From the NCBI GenBank assembly GCA_965153355.1, contig OZ231126.1:13578001-13642000 (forward strand): a stretch of DNA of 64,000 bases, read 5' to 3'. A program made the position numbers and the translations under genes. Position 1 is the stretch's first letter. Each line of letters begins with the position of its first letter. Below the pieces are notes generated by a model. It saw only the letters and a list, made by a program, of their open reading frames with translations. It made no database searches and was not told the origin of the DNA. Below, in pieces: positions 2,055 to 48,712 of this stretch. The stretch is from Flaccisagitta enflata. Lineage: Eukaryota.

Positions 2055-3479
2055 TTTTTCTTATTTCCACGTTTTATCGTTTGAAGTTAACTTTGGGGGG
2101 AAAGTTTTTTTCTTATTAGAAGAAATGATAAGAAAAAAAAAGGCTTCTCCTAACTCAATGAAAAGTCTGCTTAACGAATGAAAATTACATGAGCTTTTCG
2201 GAACCGAGATATTTGAACAGAAAGGATTGATCCAATTTCTGAGCGAATTCCATTTCGGCAAATATCAAGTTGTAAAGACTAATAAAAACTCGGGTGTGTT
2301 TCAATTATTCTGTATGTCTCTATTATTGTCTCATTTTAGCGTTTTAGTATTCTGATATTTCTTATGTTTCCATCTTTTCCTTTCTACGACTATCCCGGGC
2401 GGGAGTGAGCGAAATGAGTGAGCAAGCAAGCCTGTGTATGCATATTAACACACCATCTGTGTGAGACAAAGACGACTGTAGAATGTGGAAACGCGAAGAG
2501 CTGTGCAGTGAGTAAAAAGCAAGCAAATAAGTGCTGCCAGCGACCATGAGGCCAAAAACCAGGTTCCATTCAGAAACACGCCGTTGAGCTCCACCATAAA
2601 CAGGGCCTCCACTGTGCGCGACTTTTGAAGGGTTCACTTGAACTTGACTTGACTTGACTTGGCTAACATACCTGGTGACCTGGTGACCTATGATATTTAT
2701 CACTAAGTTAACTTACGGGAAGTAGGAATGAAGTCACGAAGTGCTTTAGGGTTAATGAATTTTGCTGGAATTTGGCGAAAAGTCATATTTGCCCTCAAGA
2801 TATGCTAGTAATCTATGACTTAAAATCTATCATTAGATTCGCCTATTTTTATGTTGAACAAATCCTTAAACATAAAAAAGTAATTTTTTGAGGGTTGAAA
2901 ACCAATAAAAACTTTATTTCCATAAGCCGACACGTGGTATTTACAGCAAGCAACATTACTAAACTAGACTACAACAAAGATGCCTATGACAATAAAAAAT
3001 ATTATTATATATGCATCTTCGCGGACACACAACTCTACACATACCGTGTCAGTTGGTCGCTCTGTCCGTCCATCTGTCGGTCCGAAATTTACGAGCGATT
3101 TATGCGCTACGGCCCTTGCCCAACCGTCTGCAACTGTCTTGCGATGTATTCGGTTTCCTTCACAAAAACAAAAAATACATTAAAAAAAACCTATACGACT
3201 GCACCCGAACGTGGTTGTGATATTAAAGCATCCCTGGGAATTCACTCCACTAGTTTCCTCTTGTCCATCCCATGCTTCCCAATGTCAGATTCAAATGGAT
3301 AAATCCTTGACTTATCGCTTAAATCTTGACATTTTAGCTCCAAAATTCTCGCTTATAGCTCCAGAATGCATATCCCAATGCCCAAAATCCTACCTACGGC
3401 CAGAAATACCAGCCTTAAGACTAAGTGAAAAAATCTTTATTTTTGCCATGTTGTTCGATTAGATGACAATCTCAATCCC

Positions 3480-8422: not shown

Positions 8423-9400
8423 TTCATAAAAGAAAAAGATAGCTTCATTAATGAACCGACCTTAGCTTGGAAGCATTCTCCTGAGCAGCTTGAACTGGCG
8501 GGACACGAATTGCCACAATTGTACATCATGTTGAGGAGCTTGACATCGTTAAAAGAAAGCCCGCTTTTGTTACGGTCACCGATGAGATTTTGGTAGCAAC
8601 TGTTTTTCGTCGTGATTGTATTCTGACCATTTTTCGAGAAATAATTTGAGCCGTAATGCATGAGGCTGTTCGAGTTTAAGAAAGAATAAAGGGGGAAAAT
8701 TACGGGTTGTATTCCTTGCTCACCAACTCACCCTGCATCCCCGTCAATTTAGAAGTTTGCTATACTACCATGGGAATAAAAGTTTAAGCTGAAATAATAC
8801 CTCAAATGATTCATCAGATATTGTCAATTGCATTCCTCAAAGTCAATCTGTATTTTTGTGACTGCTTGAGTGTTCGTGCTACATAAGCTTGCTTAAGCAA
8901 TGCGATAAAATTTTTTCCTAAGAAAGTAGATGGATACAAAGCACTCATCATTGCAGATTTCCTCTTCCGTTTCGTATTTGGGTTTTGTTTTTTTTTTAAA
9001 CTAAAGCGAACAATGATCATAGCTCATAGAATAACAAGCCAATGGTCTTGTCCACCATTAAAATTTATGAGAAAGTCTGAGTAATTTGCTTGCAATCTTA
9101 TTCCATTTGCTTGCCAATTACTAAAAAAAAACTTAGCCCTTGGTCACGATAAAAAACATCAGATTTTTGACATTTGAACGTATAATGGACTAGGATATTT
9201 GGATAAACAGGTGTGGAACTGACCTGAGGTAGTCATAAGGCAGACCAACGCCAAATGATGAAGACTGGTCCACTCTTCTAAAGGCGAAGGCTTTGCCCGG
9301 TTTGATGTTCTCATAATGAACTGTGATGTGTTGGTCCCGGTCATACTGAGTCTGAGTGTGATGCAAACCCAACGCGTGCATCAGCTCGTGCTTAATCACT

Positions 9401-9472
<72 letters not shown>

Positions 9473-10443
9473 GTTATTCATTAGCATTTAGATACTTTCA
9501 TATTAGTTGCATCCATCTGCCGTGATGCCACATAGTTTAATAAATATTGGTAAAAGCAGCATTCATATCCTGATTAAATGATCGTCACCTCCACGGCACT
9601 GTCTTAAACTCATTGCCACTTCCATCACTCAATCATTGGTTGGTTTCATCTACCTTGAATACAAGCATTGACTAATTGTCATTCCAGTCACCCATGTATT
9701 GATTGGTTTTACGAACCCGAAATACAAGCATTCACTAATTGTCATCCCAGTCACCCAAGCATTGATTGGTTTCACTAACCCTGAATACAAGCATTCACTT
9801 CCATCACCCCAGCATTGATTGGTTTCACCTACCCAGTAGTCAAGCATCCGGGGGCGAGCTCAACTTCCTGGCTTGGGCCAAATGATGACTTTCCGACGTA
9901 GGAAGAACAACCGACTCCATCAACGATTCTGAGACGTCCTGTTTCGGAGACGGAAATGGTAAGTTCGTAAAAGACTTATTGTTAGGAATATTTTGTCAGA
10001 ACTATATGAAAATTGCCAATTGTGACAACTGATTGGAGACATTGGGGAAAAGCTCCCACACTCATTGCCTAGATAACCTCCTTAATCACTAGCTGATAGG
10101 TTTATCAGATCTTTTTTTCATAATTCGTTTATTCCTAAACGGAAAAGTGAAAAATTAGGAGCGCTGTCCTAATAGTGAAGAACAATATGCTGATTTGGAA
10201 TTGTGAGCTCGATTGGGCAAGTATTTCTATTTTTAAGGCGCCGGGACTAAAAATGCAGAAAGGAAATTGTTCAAAATTATCTTCTATTTCTGATGCTAGA
10301 GAGGAGACCAATGATTGATCAAAAAACAATGTAACGACTGAAAGTTCAATCAGAGTTAGAATGGGTCAACTTTCATGTATGAGATATTCATAAAAAGTCA
10401 TTGAAACAGAACGAATTTTGAGTGGGGTGGGGTCAGGTAGATG

Positions 10444-10530
<87 letters not shown>

Positions 10531-11965
10531 CATATCCATATGAGCCACTAAAAGTTAAACGCCATTACCTGAAGCCCCGGCCGAGGGTTCGAACTTGATG
10601 CATGTTTTGGACATGAGGTCTTGCATGGCGGCGTAAACATGGTCTCTGCCGGAGAATCCGTGGTCGAACTCGTAAGGAACAACTCCATTGGGCCAAAAAT
10701 CGAACATTCCGTCGGGCTTGTGGGCCAAACGCTTCTCCATGTCAGACGCAGAACGGTTCAAAGACAGCTCATCAACACCTGAAAGGGTGAAATGATCAAG
10801 AAAACCGGATTCAAGGCATTAGTAGTCAACAAGTAGGGTATTGGTACTGAGACAGCGACAAAAACAAGATGAAGTTAAGTTGTTATAAGAATTATATTTC
10901 AATTGGTGTACATGGTATACATGTGTAAGCATGCAACTATGCATGAGTGCAGACAGAGACTGTATGCTTTGCATGAAACTATGGCTTACCTCCGATAATT
11001 TCATCAATGGTCTTCTCCGAGTCCGATACAATGGCTGAGAGAAAAAAAATATATATATCTTTGTAAATAAATTTGGTTGGACATCTGATGAAAAATTTAT
11101 TGAAGTGTGAATATGAATTTGTGCCTTTCTCTCTCACTTATCTACTCACCCTCTTACTCACTCAGTCACCCACTCAGCCACTGAGTCACTCACTCACTCA
11201 CTCACTCACTCACTCACTCACTCACTCACTCACTCACTCACTCACTCACTCACTCACTCACTCACTCACTCACTCACTCATTCACTCACTCACTCACTCA
11301 CTCCCTCACTCCCTCACTAACTCATATTTCTTACATGGTAAATTGCTGAAATCATGGGAAAGAATCTCCGCCGATGACCAAGTGTGTTGCGAGTCCGGTT
11401 CCTAGAAAGGAAGATAACGGAAAATGCAAATGAAAAAGAATTACAGCAAATTGCGAATACGGATAAAACATGACCGGATACGGCAATCAAGTCGCGGATG
11501 GTTGGGCAAGAGCAGTCATGCGAAAAACGGCAAGAATTCAAAAATGTGACGGACCGACATACCTACCGACCGACCGACACGGCAAGGTGTAGAGTCGCGT
11601 GTCGGCGACTAAAAGACAAGAATTAAGAATATCAACGCATTGTCCTCGATGTATATACGTCGTCTATGTATGAATAAATGATCTTATAATAAAATGATTC
11701 ACAATTGGCAAGTTTATTGAATGCATCGTGGTAGCTGTTTTAGGTTGTACTTGTCAGGGTGACATTTACAACGATCATATCAAATTAACATGAATTGCCG
11801 TTTCTTCATTCAGTCGTTTATATTCCTAAATTAACAAATAATGGCCATAACTTTGCCTGTATTATTCTATCTCACCTTTTGTTCTTTTGTTTCGTTGATG
11901 AGCTCACGAAGTTTCTCCATCAACTCACGCTTCTCCGTTAAGGACAAACCTGTTGAGAGAAAAAG

Positions 11966-29030: not shown

Positions 29031-29034
29031 CCTT

Positions 29035-29670
29035 TTTGGGCAGCGGCCCCAAAGGGGCCGATGACCTCTGCTTTCACACATAGGGGAAATTTCTGCTTCT
29101 TCTCCTTCTTCTCTAAACGTCCCCCCCGTTTCAAGGCTCAAACCCCAGCCTTGAGGCTCAAATCACAGCCTCAAGGCTCAAATTCCAGCCTTGAGGCTGA
29201 AATTCCATCTTCGAGACTCAAATTCCAGCCTCTAGGCTGAAATTCCAGCTTCAAGGCCTAAATAACAATCTCAAGACTCAAATTCCAGCCTTGAGGCTCA
29301 ATTTCCAGCCTCAAGGCTCAAACTCCAACATCTAAGCTCAAATCTCAGCCTTGAGGCTTGAAACCAGCCTTGAGGCTCAAATCCCAGCCTTGAGGCTCAA
29401 ATCCCAGCCTTGAGGCTCAACTTCCAGCCTTGAGGCTCAAATCCTAGTCTAGAGACTCAAATCCCAGCCTTGAGGCTCAAATCCCAACCTTGAGGCTCCA
29501 ATCCTAGCTTTGAGGCTCAAATCCCAGCTTCGAGGCTCAAATCCTTGCAGCAAGGCTCAAATTCCAGCCTTTAGCTTCAAGACTAAACTGAGCATAGGTT
29601 ATCGGTCCCTCACATACACCAACACAGGGGCAACGGGTACCGCTGACCATCTAACGCTTTTGCGACTATT
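29035..29670 (+). mobile_element. Family B element with 21-bp CCAGCCTTGAGGCTCAAATC(C) core
   Basis: TTTTGGGCAGCGGCCCCAAAGGGGCCGATG start; GGTACCGCTGACCATCTAACGC end shared with 47.1 kb. Confidence 0.8.
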
Positions 29671-34460: not shown

Positions 34461-34990
34461 TTTTGGGCAGCGGCCCCAAAGGGCCGATGTCCTGTAGGAC
34501 ACAGGGGTGAATTTCCAGACGTCCGTCCGTACGTCTGTCCATCCGTCCATACGTCTGTCTGTCCCCCCCCCTTGCAGCTTCTCAAGCCTCAAATTCCCAT
34601 TGAATAGCATGGGAAATTGAAAAAATACAATTTTCCCATTGAATAATATGGAAAATCTACAAAAAAAAAAAACAAACAAAAAATTGCATGTTCCCCAATA
34701 AATAACATAGAAAATTTATGAAAATTGAAAAAAATGTGAAATTCCCATTGGATAATGTGGTAAAATGACGAGAAATTGAAAAAAATGCAAAATTCCTATT
34801 GAATAACATGGAAAATGGCTACCAAGGACTCGAGTATACCCTCTAAAGACGTCTGGAAATTCACCTCTGTGTTCAACAGGACATCGGCCCTTTGGGGCCG
34901 CTGCCCTGCTCTCACTCAATTTTTTTAGATAATCACTCCAAGCAGGGCATCGGGCACCGCTGACCATGTGCGATTCTTGGATGACTTGTT
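34461..34990 (+). mobile_element. Family B element with about 60-bp subterminal inverted repeats and AT-rich core
   Basis: GGGCAGCGGCCCCAAAGGGCCGATGTCCTGT..ATTTCCAGACGTC mirrored at about 34848-34907; CCGCTGACCAT 3' tail. Confidence 0.8.
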
Positions 34991-43611: not shown

Positions 43612-45513
43612 CAGTAGATCTCGTCTAGACTTGAGATAACGGGGGCAAGCATTGTGGAAGGATGCATGAAGCCAGGGGAGTGATATTTGGTTTATGGACT
43701 AATCAAAGGATACTTAGTTCCTCATGATAGCTGGTTGCCATGGAAACACATATCCATGTATTATCGCTAAAATATCAAGTATGAGTATGGGAAACAAGTG
43801 GAAGAGAAGCTGGTTTCGAGAGGGTATGGACAGAACCAAATACAGAAGCAGATGAAAGAGACATTCAAGATGGAGAGAGAAAAAGCGTTAGAAAGAGTGG
43901 AAAAGAAGAAAGATAGGAGGGTCAATTTTGTTATCACGCACAGTGCTTATTTACCAAATGTAAACAAGATTATGAAAAGGCATGGCCACTACCTGAAGGA
44001 GGATGGGATGGAGCGCTTCACCAAGGACTTACCAAGATTGAGCCTAAGGAGAGGAAAGAATATTGGAGACCTGGTTGTGAATGCCGAGGCAAGGGCAGAA
44101 GGGGCTGGGTCAGGCCCATGTGGAAGGGAATGAAAGCTGTGCAAGTTAATGCAAGTGACAGACACAGTAAAGGACATGGAGGGAAAAGTGCTGAAGATAG
44201 ATTCAAAGATTGACTGCCAAACGGTTGGGGCAATTTACGGGATGTTTTGCAAGAGGTGTGAGGAAAATTATTTATGTGGGTAAAACCAAAAACAAGGTTT
44301 GTGAGAGATTCAACGGCCACAGAGCGGACATGAGATTGGAAGATGACTCAAAACCGCAATACCACTTCAAGAAGGACAACCACGCGGATGATGACATGGA
44401 GGTTTTTTGACTGAGGTATGTGCTGGGGGAAGATGACGTCTACAGGATTACCCACGAACGATGGTGGATGAATCGAATGGGGACTTTTGAGGAGGAAAAT
44501 TGAAAGAGATAGGCCTCTGGATACCCTGGGTTTTTAGTCGTGGACACGCGACTCTACACCTTGCCGTGCCAGTTGGTCCGTCCGTCGGTCCGTCACATTT
44601 CTGAATTCCGAGCGGTTTTTGCAGTACTGCTCCTGCCCAACCGTCCGCGACTGGATTGCCATGTATCCGGCCTTGTTTTTTAAGAACTATATAAGATAAA
44701 AGATATTACCCAGGCGTAGAAAGAGGAGTATAAATTTTAGTGCTTACCAAGTACGCTTCATCAGACAATCTCATTGGATGCACTACAAAAAATTCGAATA
44801 TTGGAAGTTTCTTACTAGTAAAATGAGGTGAAATGCGGTTTGACACAGAATTTTATGGTCGACTGAAATGATTGAATTTTGTTGTTCTCAGGCTAACCTT
44901 CAAAAAGTGCATGAGGCACAAAATACATCGGGGTAACTTTTACATGTTATCAATATTTTGAGAGATTTTTAGTCGCGGACACGCGACTCAACACCTTGCC
45001 GTGTTGGTCGGTAGGTCGGTAGGTCCGTCCGTCAGTCCGTCCGTCCGTCACATTTTTGATTTCCGAGTCATTTTCGCATTACTGCTCCTGCCCAACCGTC
45101 CGCGACTGGATTGCCGTGTATCCGGCCTTGTTTGAGGGAACATTGCTCAAAATCAAATTTGCTACAACTTTTGTATGATATGTCCTGTAAGAATGTCGCT
45201 CGTTTAGTGGTTGCTAGGGAGCATCACAGGGTTGTCACACATAGATACGCTCCATAGCAACAGCAATATTCTTACATAACATATTGTAGGAAACTTGTAG
45301 CAAATTCAATTTTAAACATTGTTCCCTCAAAAAATCACTCAAAATATTGATAGTTTAGCGAGAATACATGGAAATGTGTTTCCATGGCAACCAACCATCA
45401 TGGGCAATTAATCATTCTCCTTTTAGTTTATATCCCAAATATCAGTACCCTAGTTTGATTTCTCTTCCCATCATACTTGCCCCCGTCATCTCAAGTCTAG
45501 ACGAGATCTACTG
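43612..45513. mobile_element. Long-TIR non-autonomous DNA element containing a Penelope-like fragment and two family A elements
   Basis: CAGTAGATCTCGTCTAGACTTGAGAT.ACGGGGGCAAG ... CTTGCCCCCGTCATCTCAAGTCTAGACGAGATCTACTG; imperfect arms extend about 140 bp (GGTTGCCATGGAAACACAT mirrored). Confidence 0.8.
43790..44512 (+). pseudogene. Decayed Penelope-like retroelement C-terminus (GIY-YIG endonuclease)
   Basis: RGY..; LRRGKNIGDLVV; PCGRE*KLC; IDCQTVGAIYGMFCKRC; IYVGKT..ERFNGHR; HF; ERWWM. Contains stops and a frameshift. Confidence 0.85.
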
Positions 45514-45828
45514 CATTGAGGTGTGACACTTTTACCCTTTTACAACCCTGTGTAGACATCTTGGATTTCGTCTAAGACAGCAAAAACTCGCATTGATGGA
45601 CGAATTCAGGTTAAGGAACAAGGAACTACAAGCATATAGGCTATAATGCACTATATAGCTGAAACATGATATTAAAAAAAGACTTATTCAGAAATCAGAA
45701 TTTGAAACAACATGATTATGATGTATGGCGATTTTTTCTCCAATAATGGCTTTTGCTGTGTATGAGTTGGACAACATTACTTGAAAGCAAAAAATCTATG
45801 AAACATTGTGATTGAATATTTGCACATT

Positions 45829-48712
45829 CTATTGGTCCTCTTTACCAGTCATAAACCAATGAAATATTCCGGCGATAAAAGTTGACTGAACGGAATACAG
45901 CACAAAATCCACAAATCCCGCCCATCTAAGCCCGACACCCCACCCTTCAATGCTCTCTCTTTCATCCACGATCAAACTCAATGTTGCCCACAGAACATAA
46001 GTCTGTTCAACCGCATCCACCACGAAATAACCACACAACATCCAAGTGAAAAATGACGACAATTTCATGATTCTCGAATACTTCTCGTTTCTGGCTTGAT
46101 TATTGACAAAGGCTAAGGCTTTCTTCAACTCTTCGGCCGTACACCAGTTGAAATAAATGCCAAATAAACATGGAATGATCGACATGAGTAAATGATAAAC
46201 GGGATAGATGATGAAAGTCGCGGGTATTTGTTTTGTTTCACCGTATGATTCAGTTTCAGATTCGGCAGCTTCATTGAGCATGTCCCAATGAGTTTCAGAA
46301 ATCCAGTTCATCGATCTAAAGTCCTTCTCAGATTTGAAATACAAGAACCAATTAAGAACGCCGAAAGCCAAGCAAACCGCGGAGAAAGAGGAGCACATCT
46401 TAATCGTGAGAATATGTTTCATTTGGGGTTTGCAAATGAGAATGAATCTATCGAATGATTGAGCGTTGATGAGCAGCTTTTGGCTCAATTTCCAGCTTTG
46501 AAAGACGCCGCTGAAAATTTCCTTTGTCTTGGAAATGACCCAAAGTTTTCCACCGTTTTCTGGATCTTTCACCAGATCCCAAATGAAACCAGAAAACACG
46601 CAGCCGATGTGGCCTTGGACAATTTAGGGTGTGTTTCTACTAACAATGAAGAACGCGTTCATTCCCTTCAAACGCGTTTTCAGTGTGAACACATTCTCGG
46701 AAATTTCAACAAACATAAGAGGGAGTGAGTGAAGTGAGTGAGCAAGCGTAGCAAAGCGAAGCACTGCAGAGTGAGTGAGCAGAGTGAGCGGTGCAAGTGA
46801 ACAAACATAGCGAGCGACCGACTGGCCCGTTAAAAACGCGATTTTCACGAGTAGAAACAGGCCATACCTTGGACAATTAAAAGATTGAGGACACAAACGA
46901 CGGAGACAACAATTCCATAGACATTGGCGCTGATTGGACTTTGCCTGAACTGACGAATGAATCGAAGCAGAACGGAAATGGCCAAAAACAAGCCGACGAA
47001 TGAGGCAATGGACAGAATGCCGTTTGGGACCAATTCTATGATGTCTATGATCAAACCTTCTCGCGCAAAGTATTCCTGTGAAGGGTTCAAAAGAAATAGT
47101 CGCAAGAGCGTTAGATGGTCAGCGGTACCCGTGCCCAGCTTAAGTGGGTTGTGGTTGAATCTGAGGGGGGAGCAGGGCAGCGGCCCCGAAGGGGTCGATG
47201 ACCTATGCTTTCACACGTATGGGGAATTTTCTCCTCCTTCTCCTCCTCCTCCTCCGCACCCGTTCCCCCTCCCCCTGGCCTCCAGGCCCACATCTCAGCC
47301 CGGAATCTTAGCCTTGGGGTTGGGATTTGGGCCTTGAGGGTGGGATTTGGGCCTCAAGACTGGGATTTGGGCCTCGAGGCTGGGATATAGGCCTCCGGGC
47401 TGAGATATGGGCCTGGAGGCTGGGGGGAGGGGGGGGGGTACGAAGGAGGAGGAGGAGAATGAGGAGAAAATTCCCCATATGTGTGAAATCATAGGTCACC
47501 GACCCCTTCGGGGCCGCTGCCCAAAAGGAAAGATATTGATGGGCTATCTGAGATTGTTGGTGAGGCGGTTCTTATAATAAAGGGTGAACAACCCCAAGTG
47601 TGGGAAAGTAAAAGCTAATTCCTCATAAATTACTCTGTATACTTCAAAACTGAAAGTTGCTTCTGGTTTTGGTTCGTCTAAAATGGCAAAGGGGATGAAA
47701 CCATGATGGAGATGGTTTCCCTTCATGTCAGTTATTTGTCTAATTTACTGTAAAAGTTGAGGTATGAGCATGCAGAAGTTATACAACGCTTAGCTTTTAC
47801 TTTCCCCCACTTGAGCTTGTTTACCGCGTATCATGTAGATAATGATTGTGTGACATAGAAAAGTGGTAGACAGTCTACTTTTACATGGCGCTGTTTGTGA
47901 TAGTTTGTTTGGTTTGTTGCACTGATCCAAGTAAAATATTCTCATCTAACATTGAATAGGTCGCCCAAGGGCAATATGTGGTCAGCGAAACCCGTTGCCC
48001 TGCTTTGCATGGTTGTGAATCGGAATGAGAGGAAGCAGGGCAGCGGCCTTGAAGGGGACAAAGTTCTGTAGAACACAGGAGGACTTCCGTCCATCAGTCT
48101 GTCTGTCCGTCAGTCCTCCCCAGGCCCTCACAAATCTACTATCTCAGGCCTGAAATCTGGCCTCTCAGGCCTGAAATCTCGCAGGTTTCAGGCCTGAGAG
48201 GGCTGATTCAAGGCTTGAGAGGGCAGATTTCCGGCCTTGGAGGGCAAATTTCCAGCCCAAAAGAGCAGGTTTCAGGCCCGAGAGTCCAGAGTCCTGGTCT
48301 TAGAGGGCAGATTCAAGGCCTGAGAGGGCCTGGGGGGGACTAACGGATGTACAAATGGACGGACAAACGAAAGTCCCCCTGTGTTCTACAGGACTTCGGC
48401 CCCTTCGGGGTCACTGCCCAAAAAGCAACCTACAATTTCTGTGGACGTCAGGGATGAATTGCCGTTTCTCGCTTCCTCCAATCTTTCTTCAGCAATACCT
48501 TTAACGACAAGAACGAGGGAAACATAAGAACTCAATAAATCAATCAACCACCTCTAACAAAATGCCATGATGGCCAGTTGATGGCCTTACCATTGCCAAC
48601 ATAAGTTACAAAACTCCTGGTAGAATCAAATGCTGTATGACATCGCGACTGGTGAATTCAACTTCATTATACCTTTGAGATTTGAAGTGATATTTGACGT
48701 AGAATTTCCCAT
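45829..48712 (-). CDS. Rhodopsin-like (class A) 7TM receptor, paralogue B
   Basis: Exons 47075-46868 and 46613-45829 join into a sequence colinear with paralogue A (SAN[V/I]YGI, QSFDR[F/Y]ILIC.P, PAT.I.YP.YHLL, FWFTG-like end). N-terminal exons 48712-48673 (MGNSTSNITSNLK) and 48498-48434 are tentative. Confidence 0.78.
46614..46867 (-). other. Predicted 254-nt GT-AG intron created by a MITE plus its target duplication
   Basis: CAAG|GTATGG donor and CCCTAAATTGTCCAAG|GC acceptor. Excision restores the frame and gap-free alignment to paralogue A. Confidence 0.72.
46625..46866. mobile_element. 242-bp MITE-like element with 12-bp flanking direct repeat
   Basis: TAGGGTGTGTTTCTACT / AGTAGAAACAGGCCATA imperfect TIRs. 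CCTTGGACAATT at 46613-46624 and 46867-46878. Internal GGGAGTGAG..TGAGTGAGCAAGC motif is also seen at about 2401-2430. Confidence 0.85.
47100..47527 (-). mobile_element. Family B element (intronic)
   Basis: GGGCAGCGGCCCCGAAGGGGTCG inverted pair at about 47176 and 47500-47522; 21-bp core. Confidence 0.8.
48036..48424 (-). mobile_element. Family B element with GCAGATTTCAGGCCTGAGAGG core
   Basis: Same core and end as the element at 1-1482. Confidence 0.8.

Follow-up and report, generated by a model that had tools for sequence, protein, structure and literature searches.

In a 64,000-base stretch of the Flaccisagitta enflata genome (contig OZ231126.1, positions 13,578,001 to 13,642,000 of the forward strand; hereafter the window), the coding sequence of a receptor-like gene, which we call B, is interrupted by a 242-bp transposable element bearing terminal inverted repeats (TIRs). 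The explanation that we favor is a single transposon-derived intron gain: the element is probably removed from the B mRNA as a spliceosomal intron, with both the splice sites and the splicing predicted from the DNA. The element is flanked by an exact duplication that places GT and AG at its borders, it is present in several independent samples, and B is under purifying selection. In the proposed course of events, a short non-autonomous TIR transposon resembling a miniature inverted-repeat transposable element (MITE) and belonging to a high-copy family would have inserted into the coding sequence of B, at the boundary between the second transmembrane helix (TM2) and the first extracellular loop (ECL1), and duplicated 12 bp of target that end in AGG. 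The last G of the upstream duplicate and the first T of the element would then form a GT donor, and the AG of the downstream duplicate would become the acceptor. Splicing at these two sites would take out the element plus one duplicate and restore the original mRNA exactly, and purifying selection would have kept B since the insertion. All coordinates below are those of the window; the element, the introns, and both receptor genes are read on the minus strand. Alleles were compared with the window over 45400-47170 in three DNA runs (X2, from the same organism; X3, a marine metagenome; and X4) and in a polyA RNA run of the same study (X10), and further allele data came from ENA gene calls, for example P0019, which is found in three contigs. 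The search for runs that contain the sequence listed X1, the likely source run, along with X2 and marine metagenomes from two other studies, and no RNA run.

The exon of B that lies 5' of the element (47075-46868) encodes TM1-TM2, and the last exon (46613-45829, including the stop codon) runs from ECL1 to the C-terminus. With 254 nt taken out, so that 46868 meets 46613, B reads through 334 codons (from 47087) as a single open frame. The ancestral state, without the intron, can be judged from a paralogue, A, which lies 2.7 kb from B and is an uninterrupted open reading frame (ORF) of 335 codons (50341-49337; the gene as a whole, 50341-49334). Joined B and A are 41% identical (134/325 residues, E = 7e-83), and the alignment block across the junction is ungapped. 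Thus, an earlier, sequence-only reading of this DNA was right that removal of the element aligns B gap-free to its uninterrupted paralogue, although the downstream ORF, which it gave as 256 codons, actually comprises the split codon and a further 260 complete ones. Because nothing interrupts A at the corresponding codon, the interruption of B is derived. There are 128 GT..AG pairs around the element, 14 of which leave the gene open and in frame; all 334 codons are kept only by the pair 46867..46614. If the element were retained in the mRNA, the frame would stop six codons into it. The insertion point, at the TM2/ECL1 boundary, is just 5' of a cysteine that is conserved in most family members. 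This residue falls no more than four positions past the junction, which favors the proximal acceptor. Apart from A and B, the window has no long clean ORF.

The element occupies 46866-46625 and is bounded by two copies of a 12-bp target-site duplication (TSD), AATTGTCCAAGG, the upstream one at 46878-46867 and the downstream one at 46624-46613. This 12-mer is found in just two places in the window with up to one mismatch allowed, and both matches are exact. At least two such matches (again with one mismatch at most) turned up in 13 of 100 shuffles, a figure that refers to matches anywhere in the window and not to exact copies abutting one element. The TIRs are imperfect and 17 nt long: the 5' repeat (46866-46850) reads TATGGCCTGTTTCTACT, and the 3' repeat (46641-46625, which includes the branch-like CCCTA) reads TAGGGTGTGTTTCTACT as its reverse complement, so that 14 of 17 positions are equal. 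Both termini have the form TA(G/T)GG, and in the X2 and X3 alleles the 5' terminus reads TAGGG..., closer to the other terminus than that of the window. There is also an 11-nt subterminal inverted repeat inside the element. The element is non-coding, crossed by read-through frames only, and too short for a transposase. It resembles a MITE in that it is short, does not code for a transposase, and has TIRs next to a TSD; for a MITE, 12 bp is an atypical length of the TSD. The basic observation, a 242-bp element with imperfect TIRs and a 12-bp duplication inside B, is therefore as first described. In the minimum-free-energy RNA fold of the predicted intron the TIRs pair and bring the ends together, with an energy that is ordinary (z = -0.24). 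Transposons of the hAT superfamily have YARNG termini and 8-bp TSDs. We considered hAT and leave the superfamily unassigned: the TAGGG termini are similar, but the TSD is 12 bp, with its four extra bases matching exactly, instead of 8 bp. A text search of the literature on 12-bp TSDs yielded no fitting TIR family.

The DNA runs point to a repeated family. In X2, the summed word depth, which is not the same as copy number, is 2e4 to 3e5 over the core (46720-46899) versus about 100-300 in the flanks, a difference of roughly 1000-fold, and X3 and X4 are alike. Moreover, contigs of the DNA runs branch into other flanks at the ends of the element. This high depth in the core and this divergence at the ends suggest that the element belongs to a repeated family. 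The repeated core within the element is approximately 46720-46866; at 95% likeness, the 3' third (46625-46719) shows no such high repetition. A blastn search of the element against the window gave no second intact copy. The related motif that the sequence-only reading placed at 2401-2430 is a real match (27 nt at 2401-2427, 92.6%), and it is accompanied by a terminus-like match at 2290-2306 and two more colinear blocks. The whole segment (2290-2530, minus strand), with three colinear blocks including the terminus GAAACACACCC and a position outside every ORF of at least 130 amino acids, looks like a relative of the element that is old and degraded, not like a second intact copy. The remaining blastn matches hit a tandem array of short period at about 11.2 kb. 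In metagenome contigs, a 20-mer of the element core and a 25-mer block common to both window copies each had 0 loci, and the 20-mer also had 0 loci in viral contigs.

The predicted intron (46867-46614) is 254 nt long, is in phase 1, begins with GT and ends with AG, and equals the element plus one duplicate. Its donor, AAG|GTATGG, combines the last G of the upstream duplicate (46867, with the exon ending at 46868) with the first T of the element; its acceptor, ...CCCTAAATTGTCCAAG|G, lies within the downstream duplicate, with the AG at 46615-46614 and the exon restarting at 46613. This is the splice geometry proposed in the sequence-only reading, and removal at these sites does restore the frame exactly. 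In X2 and X3 the donor reads GTAGGG, which improves the TIR match and is probably the ancestral donor state. Judged by sequence, the donor of B is acceptable, and the signals as a whole are canonical but mediocre. The window offers a standard of comparison in an astacin-family metalloprotease gene (8461-10776, minus strand), in which Pfam PF01400 is found on three exons (profile positions 2-42, 82-140, and 139-188) with canonical GT-AG introns, one of which (9223-8666) is fixed by continuity of the Pfam profile. Its donors are CAG|GTAATG and CAG|GTCAGT, and its acceptors are ...tttcag|, ...ctctcag|, and ...gaacag|. Because of these sites, the organism reads as a canonical GT-AG splicer. One astacin acceptor has a long (CT)n microsatellite (~9402-9470) as its pyrimidine tract.

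The insertion is present in each independent data set that covers a junction, namely X2, X3, and the ENA contigs with P0019. Contigs from X2 span 46310-46694 and 46837-46989, bridging both element/exon junctions, and one contig from X3 spans 46817-47096. P0019 is a gene call of 131 residues, the last 79 of which (residues 53-131) map to 47084-46848 with 97.5% identity; it ends within the element, at the same stop as in the window. We found no empty site and no join that skips 46614-46867 in the three DNA runs. No B protein in uninterrupted or spliced form came out of the searches: the last-exon query returned only 160-residue calls (the P0003 cluster) and distant paralogues, and the upstream-exon query returned only P0019. 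The four 160-residue ENA calls (P0003 and P0005-P0007) start at an internal methionine of B (ATG 46311) after AAGGA; they are presumably fragments that result from prokaryote-style gene calling on animal DNA in public metagenome assemblies. We regard the insertion as old and widespread. In principle, the X2 contigs could come from a very recent duplicate of B instead of an allele, which would leave the conclusions about B unchanged.

The sequences that carry the insertion show that B has been under purifying selection. Across the gene, X2, X3, and X4 differ from the window at 20 single bases, 17 in coding sequence and 3 in the element. Thirteen of the coding differences are synonymous and four are nonsynonymous, for 210 synonymous and 792 nonsynonymous sites; if a neutral share of 0.21 to 0.30 is assumed for synonymous changes, 13 or more of them would arise with a binomial probability of 1.5e-6 to 1e-4. 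The pattern holds in both exons, with 10 synonymous and 3 nonsynonymous differences in the last exon and 3 and 1, respectively, in the upstream one. There are no indels relative to the window in the gene in any of the three runs, and no difference creates a stop. Between X2 and the window, divergence at synonymous sites (dS) is 0.044 (8/183) and at nonsynonymous sites (dN) 0.0043 (3/693), a dN/dS ratio of about 0.10, and the element in the junction-bridging contigs differs at 0.027 (3/112). In Fisher's tests, dN falls below both dS (P = 3e-4) and the divergence of the element (P = 0.038); dS and the element show no difference (P = 0.54). Since differences within the element postdate the insertion and match the density of silent-site differences, much of the divergence of the exons probably arose after the insertion, under purifying selection. 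Protein variants from ENA add to this: over the last 160 residues of B, four variants have 0, 1, 2, and 2 residue differences from the window, and over the last 160 aligned columns of A, three variants have 2, 6, and 7. In this population form, the test of neutral evolution that was proposed for B speaks against a knockout, with 13 synonymous and 4 nonsynonymous changes and no indels or stops. Truncation after 80 codons would not leave such conservation, and removal of the element from the mRNA is therefore the simplest reading. A gene that stayed functional after an old and widespread insertion argues for splicing-out, and the element is most likely spliced from the mRNA.

A number of observations weigh against this conclusion. 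The acceptor is weak: it is AAG and not CAG as at the three astacin acceptor-like sites, only about half of the last 23 nt before it are pyrimidines, and AGs at -23 and -26, use of which would shift the frame, follow the better tract ttcttcattgtt. The intron had been called perfect in the sequence-only reading, which overstates the case for a site with an AAG, a poor pyrimidine tract, and two frame-breaking AGs upstream. Nor did the branch-like motif that it pointed out fare better, as CCCTAAAT, only ~10-12 nt from the acceptor AG, reads CCCTGAAT in the X2 allele. The polyA RNA run X10 has 0 reads on the B exons or the element, with ~6/100 of the run read. The gene model of B is incomplete, because neither the exon 5' of the element nor the frame that continues from it as far as the stop at 47213-47211 contains an in-frame ATG, and 1,020 trial excisions of a repeat directly upstream (47085-47525) gave no ATG-started frame. 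Two of the four nonsynonymous changes fall within the 48 nt directly after the proposed acceptor. The timing argument uses just three substitutions in 112 element bases, and recombination could have moved older flanking polymorphism onto insertion haplotypes. Finally, Logan contigs drop rare variants, and a low-frequency empty-site allele could escape notice in them.

Several of these points are what one would expect if B were plainly knocked out, a pseudogene or null allele in which the GT..AG geometry is coincidental, as it would be for approximately 1 in 64 insertions (those with a TSD ending in AGG). The lack of spliced RNA in the part of X10 that was read, the missing start codon, the weak context of the acceptor, the second repeat that the window haplotype carries directly upstream and another allele lacks, and the presence of a redundant paralogue nearby would all fit. 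On the other hand, a dead gene does not agree with the predominance of synonymous differences among insertion-bearing alleles, with their intact frames, with a dN about six times below the divergence of the element in the same contigs, or with a C-terminal part that is less variable than that of A among ENA variants; moreover, no data set that reaches a junction lacks the insertion. We therefore consider a knockout unlikely. There is also a small chance, one that we would not bet on, that the element is spliced out at other sites and the protein is changed, either from the same donor to an AG at 46566 or 46560 (which would make the intron 302 or 308 nt long and cost the protein 16-18 residues) or from a cryptic donor. 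Both downstream AGs leave the gene open and in frame, and a T-rich stretch of exon precedes them, in contrast to the poor tract of the proposed acceptor, some 10-12 nt from the branch-like motif. The 48 nt that such splicing would add to the intron hold two of four nonsynonymous and 0 of 13 synonymous differences; however, these two substitutions are conservative (H>N and K>R) and both come from one run, and a loop past the conserved cysteine that is variable in the family can by itself account for relaxed constraint. The segment that would be skipped also contains that cysteine, which most family members conserve.

Selection could act without any splicing if the two halves of B were used separately, with a promoter inside the element or past it driving the downstream ORF (TM3-TM7), whose translation would begin at an internal methionine. 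In-frame methionine codons do exist in the last exon, and most of the polymorphism evidence (10 synonymous and 3 nonsynonymous differences) comes from there. Yet the upstream exon, with three synonymous changes to one nonsynonymous, and P0019, with just 2 changes in 79 aligned residues, look conserved as well, a receptor without TM1-TM2 would not be expected to fold, and the fraction of X10 that was read contains no RNA start. This makes the use of separate halves very improbable in our view. Hardly credible is an origin of the insert without transposition, as filler DNA taken up when a staggered double-strand break was repaired, a process that can leave short direct repeats at new introns. 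A duplication of 12 bp is longer than the TSDs of most TIR superfamilies, which counts for this origin, as does the literature search for 12-bp TSDs, with no TIR family to match. However, the inverted repeats end exactly at the duplication, the core is highly repeated in three DNA runs whose contigs diverge at its ends, and the segment at 2290-2530, a degraded relative, shares the terminus. Transposition, with probable splicing at sites that the TSD helps to form, is the reading that we retain.

As to the kind of receptor that B encodes, Pfam searches identified no family at E <= 1 for B and none at threshold for A; seven-transmembrane (7tm) families were absent at E <= 1 from A, from both parts of B, and from the relatives P0002, P0004, P0010, P0011, and P0012. 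An exhaustive profile search collected 16 family representatives at E <= 0.001 among 1.84 billion; all are without a protein name, and those with a source shown come from ENA. Other comparisons lead to rhodopsin-type (class A) receptors, Pfam 7tm_1. When the family alignment was compared by hhalign with P0020, a 7tm_1 protein (Pfam E = 5.8e-52), the two matched over TM1-TM3 with 92.8% probability (E = 4e-7), and the FDRY..IC.P motifs lined up. A weak HMM match to olfactory receptor 51E2 (E = 0.0023) covers the same stretch, and in a language-model lookup in the ESM Atlas, all 10 best matches with a Pfam family share 7tm_1 or its clan. An AlphaFold2 model from five sequences has seven long helices, with a mean predicted local distance difference test score of 44, which is low confidence. 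Like class A receptors, the family has FDRY and then ILICxP at the end of the third helix; unlike them, it has no NPxxY-type motif in the last helix. The G protein-coupled receptor label of the sequence-only reading is thus plausible on the strength of the profile match to a 7tm_1 protein and the DRY region, but does not amount to a database-level assignment, since no Pfam family is assigned. We describe B as plausibly a divergent, lineage-restricted rhodopsin-type 7TM receptor gene.

The 5' end of B lies in a region rich in other repeats. A good acceptor-like site, cacag|GAATAC (AG at 47077-47076), precedes the upstream exon. A start farther away (ATG 47726, GTAATT donor 47633) could be joined in phase to 47075, but nothing supports this candidate, and we set it aside. 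Just upstream of the exon is a second repeat, unrelated to the 242-bp element (47525-47085, minus strand), which is palindromic, is 441 nt long, and has 101-nt arms (89%) and five 20-nt tandem units; further copies are found at ~29034-29670, 34461-34967, and 47966-48423. P0019 runs from 47526 directly to 47084, without the 441-nt repeat, which is thus a presence/absence polymorphism younger than the 242-bp element. A TAG in the window (47546-47544) is a threonine codon in P0019, and farther upstream P0019 and the window are wholly unlike. A pair of 36-nt inverted repeats (47583-47618 and 47790-47825, 89%) bounds ~243 bp upstream of B, within which P0019 diverges, and this segment may be a third small TIR element. 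We read the region upstream of the B exon as non-coding, either intron or 5' flank, dotted with small repeats. The tail of the 441-nt repeat includes a 37-nt core (47095-47131) whose summed word depth is 2.5e5 to 2.6e6 in all three DNA runs. All 112 X10 reads fall here (47094-47132), each running on into dissimilar sequence to either side, and the core belongs to a repeat that is abundant and transcribed. In the 3' flank of B, 45460-45519 is a further high-copy repeat, with a summed word depth of 3.8e4 to 5.1e5 and contigs that diverge on both sides. Throughout the window, microsatellites and short tandem arrays are extremely common (CA/GT, CT/GA, CTCA-type, GAA/TTC, and 12-20-nt units).

Animals rarely gain introns, and in the accounts given by two studies (PMC9860276, PMC12130899) those made by transposons are documented in few animal groups. 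This locus is useful because the ancestral state is visible in a neighboring paralogue, the TSD is intact, and there is population evidence that B kept working after the insertion. If the splice is true, it would be a clean natural example of an exonic transposon insertion that became an intron, and a reason to survey the genome for sister copies. The sequence-only reading went further and proposed an intron-generating family in this animal, which is a guess. In its boldest form, about which we are doubtful, a marine animal lineage would harbor an active or recently active intron-generating MITE family, with an unusual 12-bp TSD and symmetric TA(G/T)GG termini. If so, an exonic insertion in either orientation into a target ending in AGG would give a precise GT..AG intron, and many genes of the animal would contain such young introns, some of them still polymorphic. 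A duplicated target would, however, end in AGG at about 1 in 64 random sites, where either orientation would then make a precise GT..AG unit; with a high-copy family, a single surviving case therefore needs no special system.

The closest known systems are the introners, introns derived from DNA transposons, often with TIRs and TSDs and with splice sites taken in part from the TSD, which were first described in algae and later surveyed across eukaryotes (Gozashti et al. 2022, PMC9860276, for the survey). In that survey's account, they were found in 175 of 3,325 genomes, were strongly enriched in aquatic organisms, and occurred in two animal groups only, and earlier families had TSDs of 3-9 bp (PMC9860276). 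A 2025 study reports validated introners in a sea urchin and a tunicate (PMC12130899). On the one hand, B resembles the introners as these sources present them: a short non-autonomous TIR/TSD element sits in a coding exon of an aquatic host, one or more splice sites would be recruited from the TSD, and the length of the mRNA would be restored. On the sequence level, transposon hallmarks bound the predicted intron, and its splice sites are co-opted from the TSD. On the other hand, introner families consist of many near-identical copies spliced in unrelated genes, whereas here there is one copy in one gene, seen at the sequence level, and its TSD is 12 bp long in place of 3-9 bp. The case thus appears to work like an introner insertion, while membership depends on family-level features, that is, many spliced copies in unrelated genes.

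Another marine animal, Fritillaria borealis, has MITE-derived introns that, according to a review, mostly have non-canonical ends (AG-AC and AG-AT) and depend on an altered spliceosome (Henriet et al. 2019, per PMC11282704). There, too, MITEs inserted into genes of a marine animal, and their removal by the spliceosome, which is predicted for B, was seen. The difference, as far as the review's description goes, is that the intron in B has GT-AG ends and that the other intron sites in the window are canonical. In laboratory alleles of maize (Ds and dSpm) and Caenorhabditis elegans (Tc1), transposon insertions in exons are spliced out through cryptic sites at or near their ends, usually in an imprecise and leaky manner. 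Like these, B appears to tolerate a DNA-transposon insertion in an exon, with sites at or near the ends of the element; in contrast to them, the geometry here allows exact restoration, and we are dealing with an old allele that is widespread in nature. Intron gain by transposon insertion is a known kind of event, and the case of B extends a known mechanism and reveals no new one.

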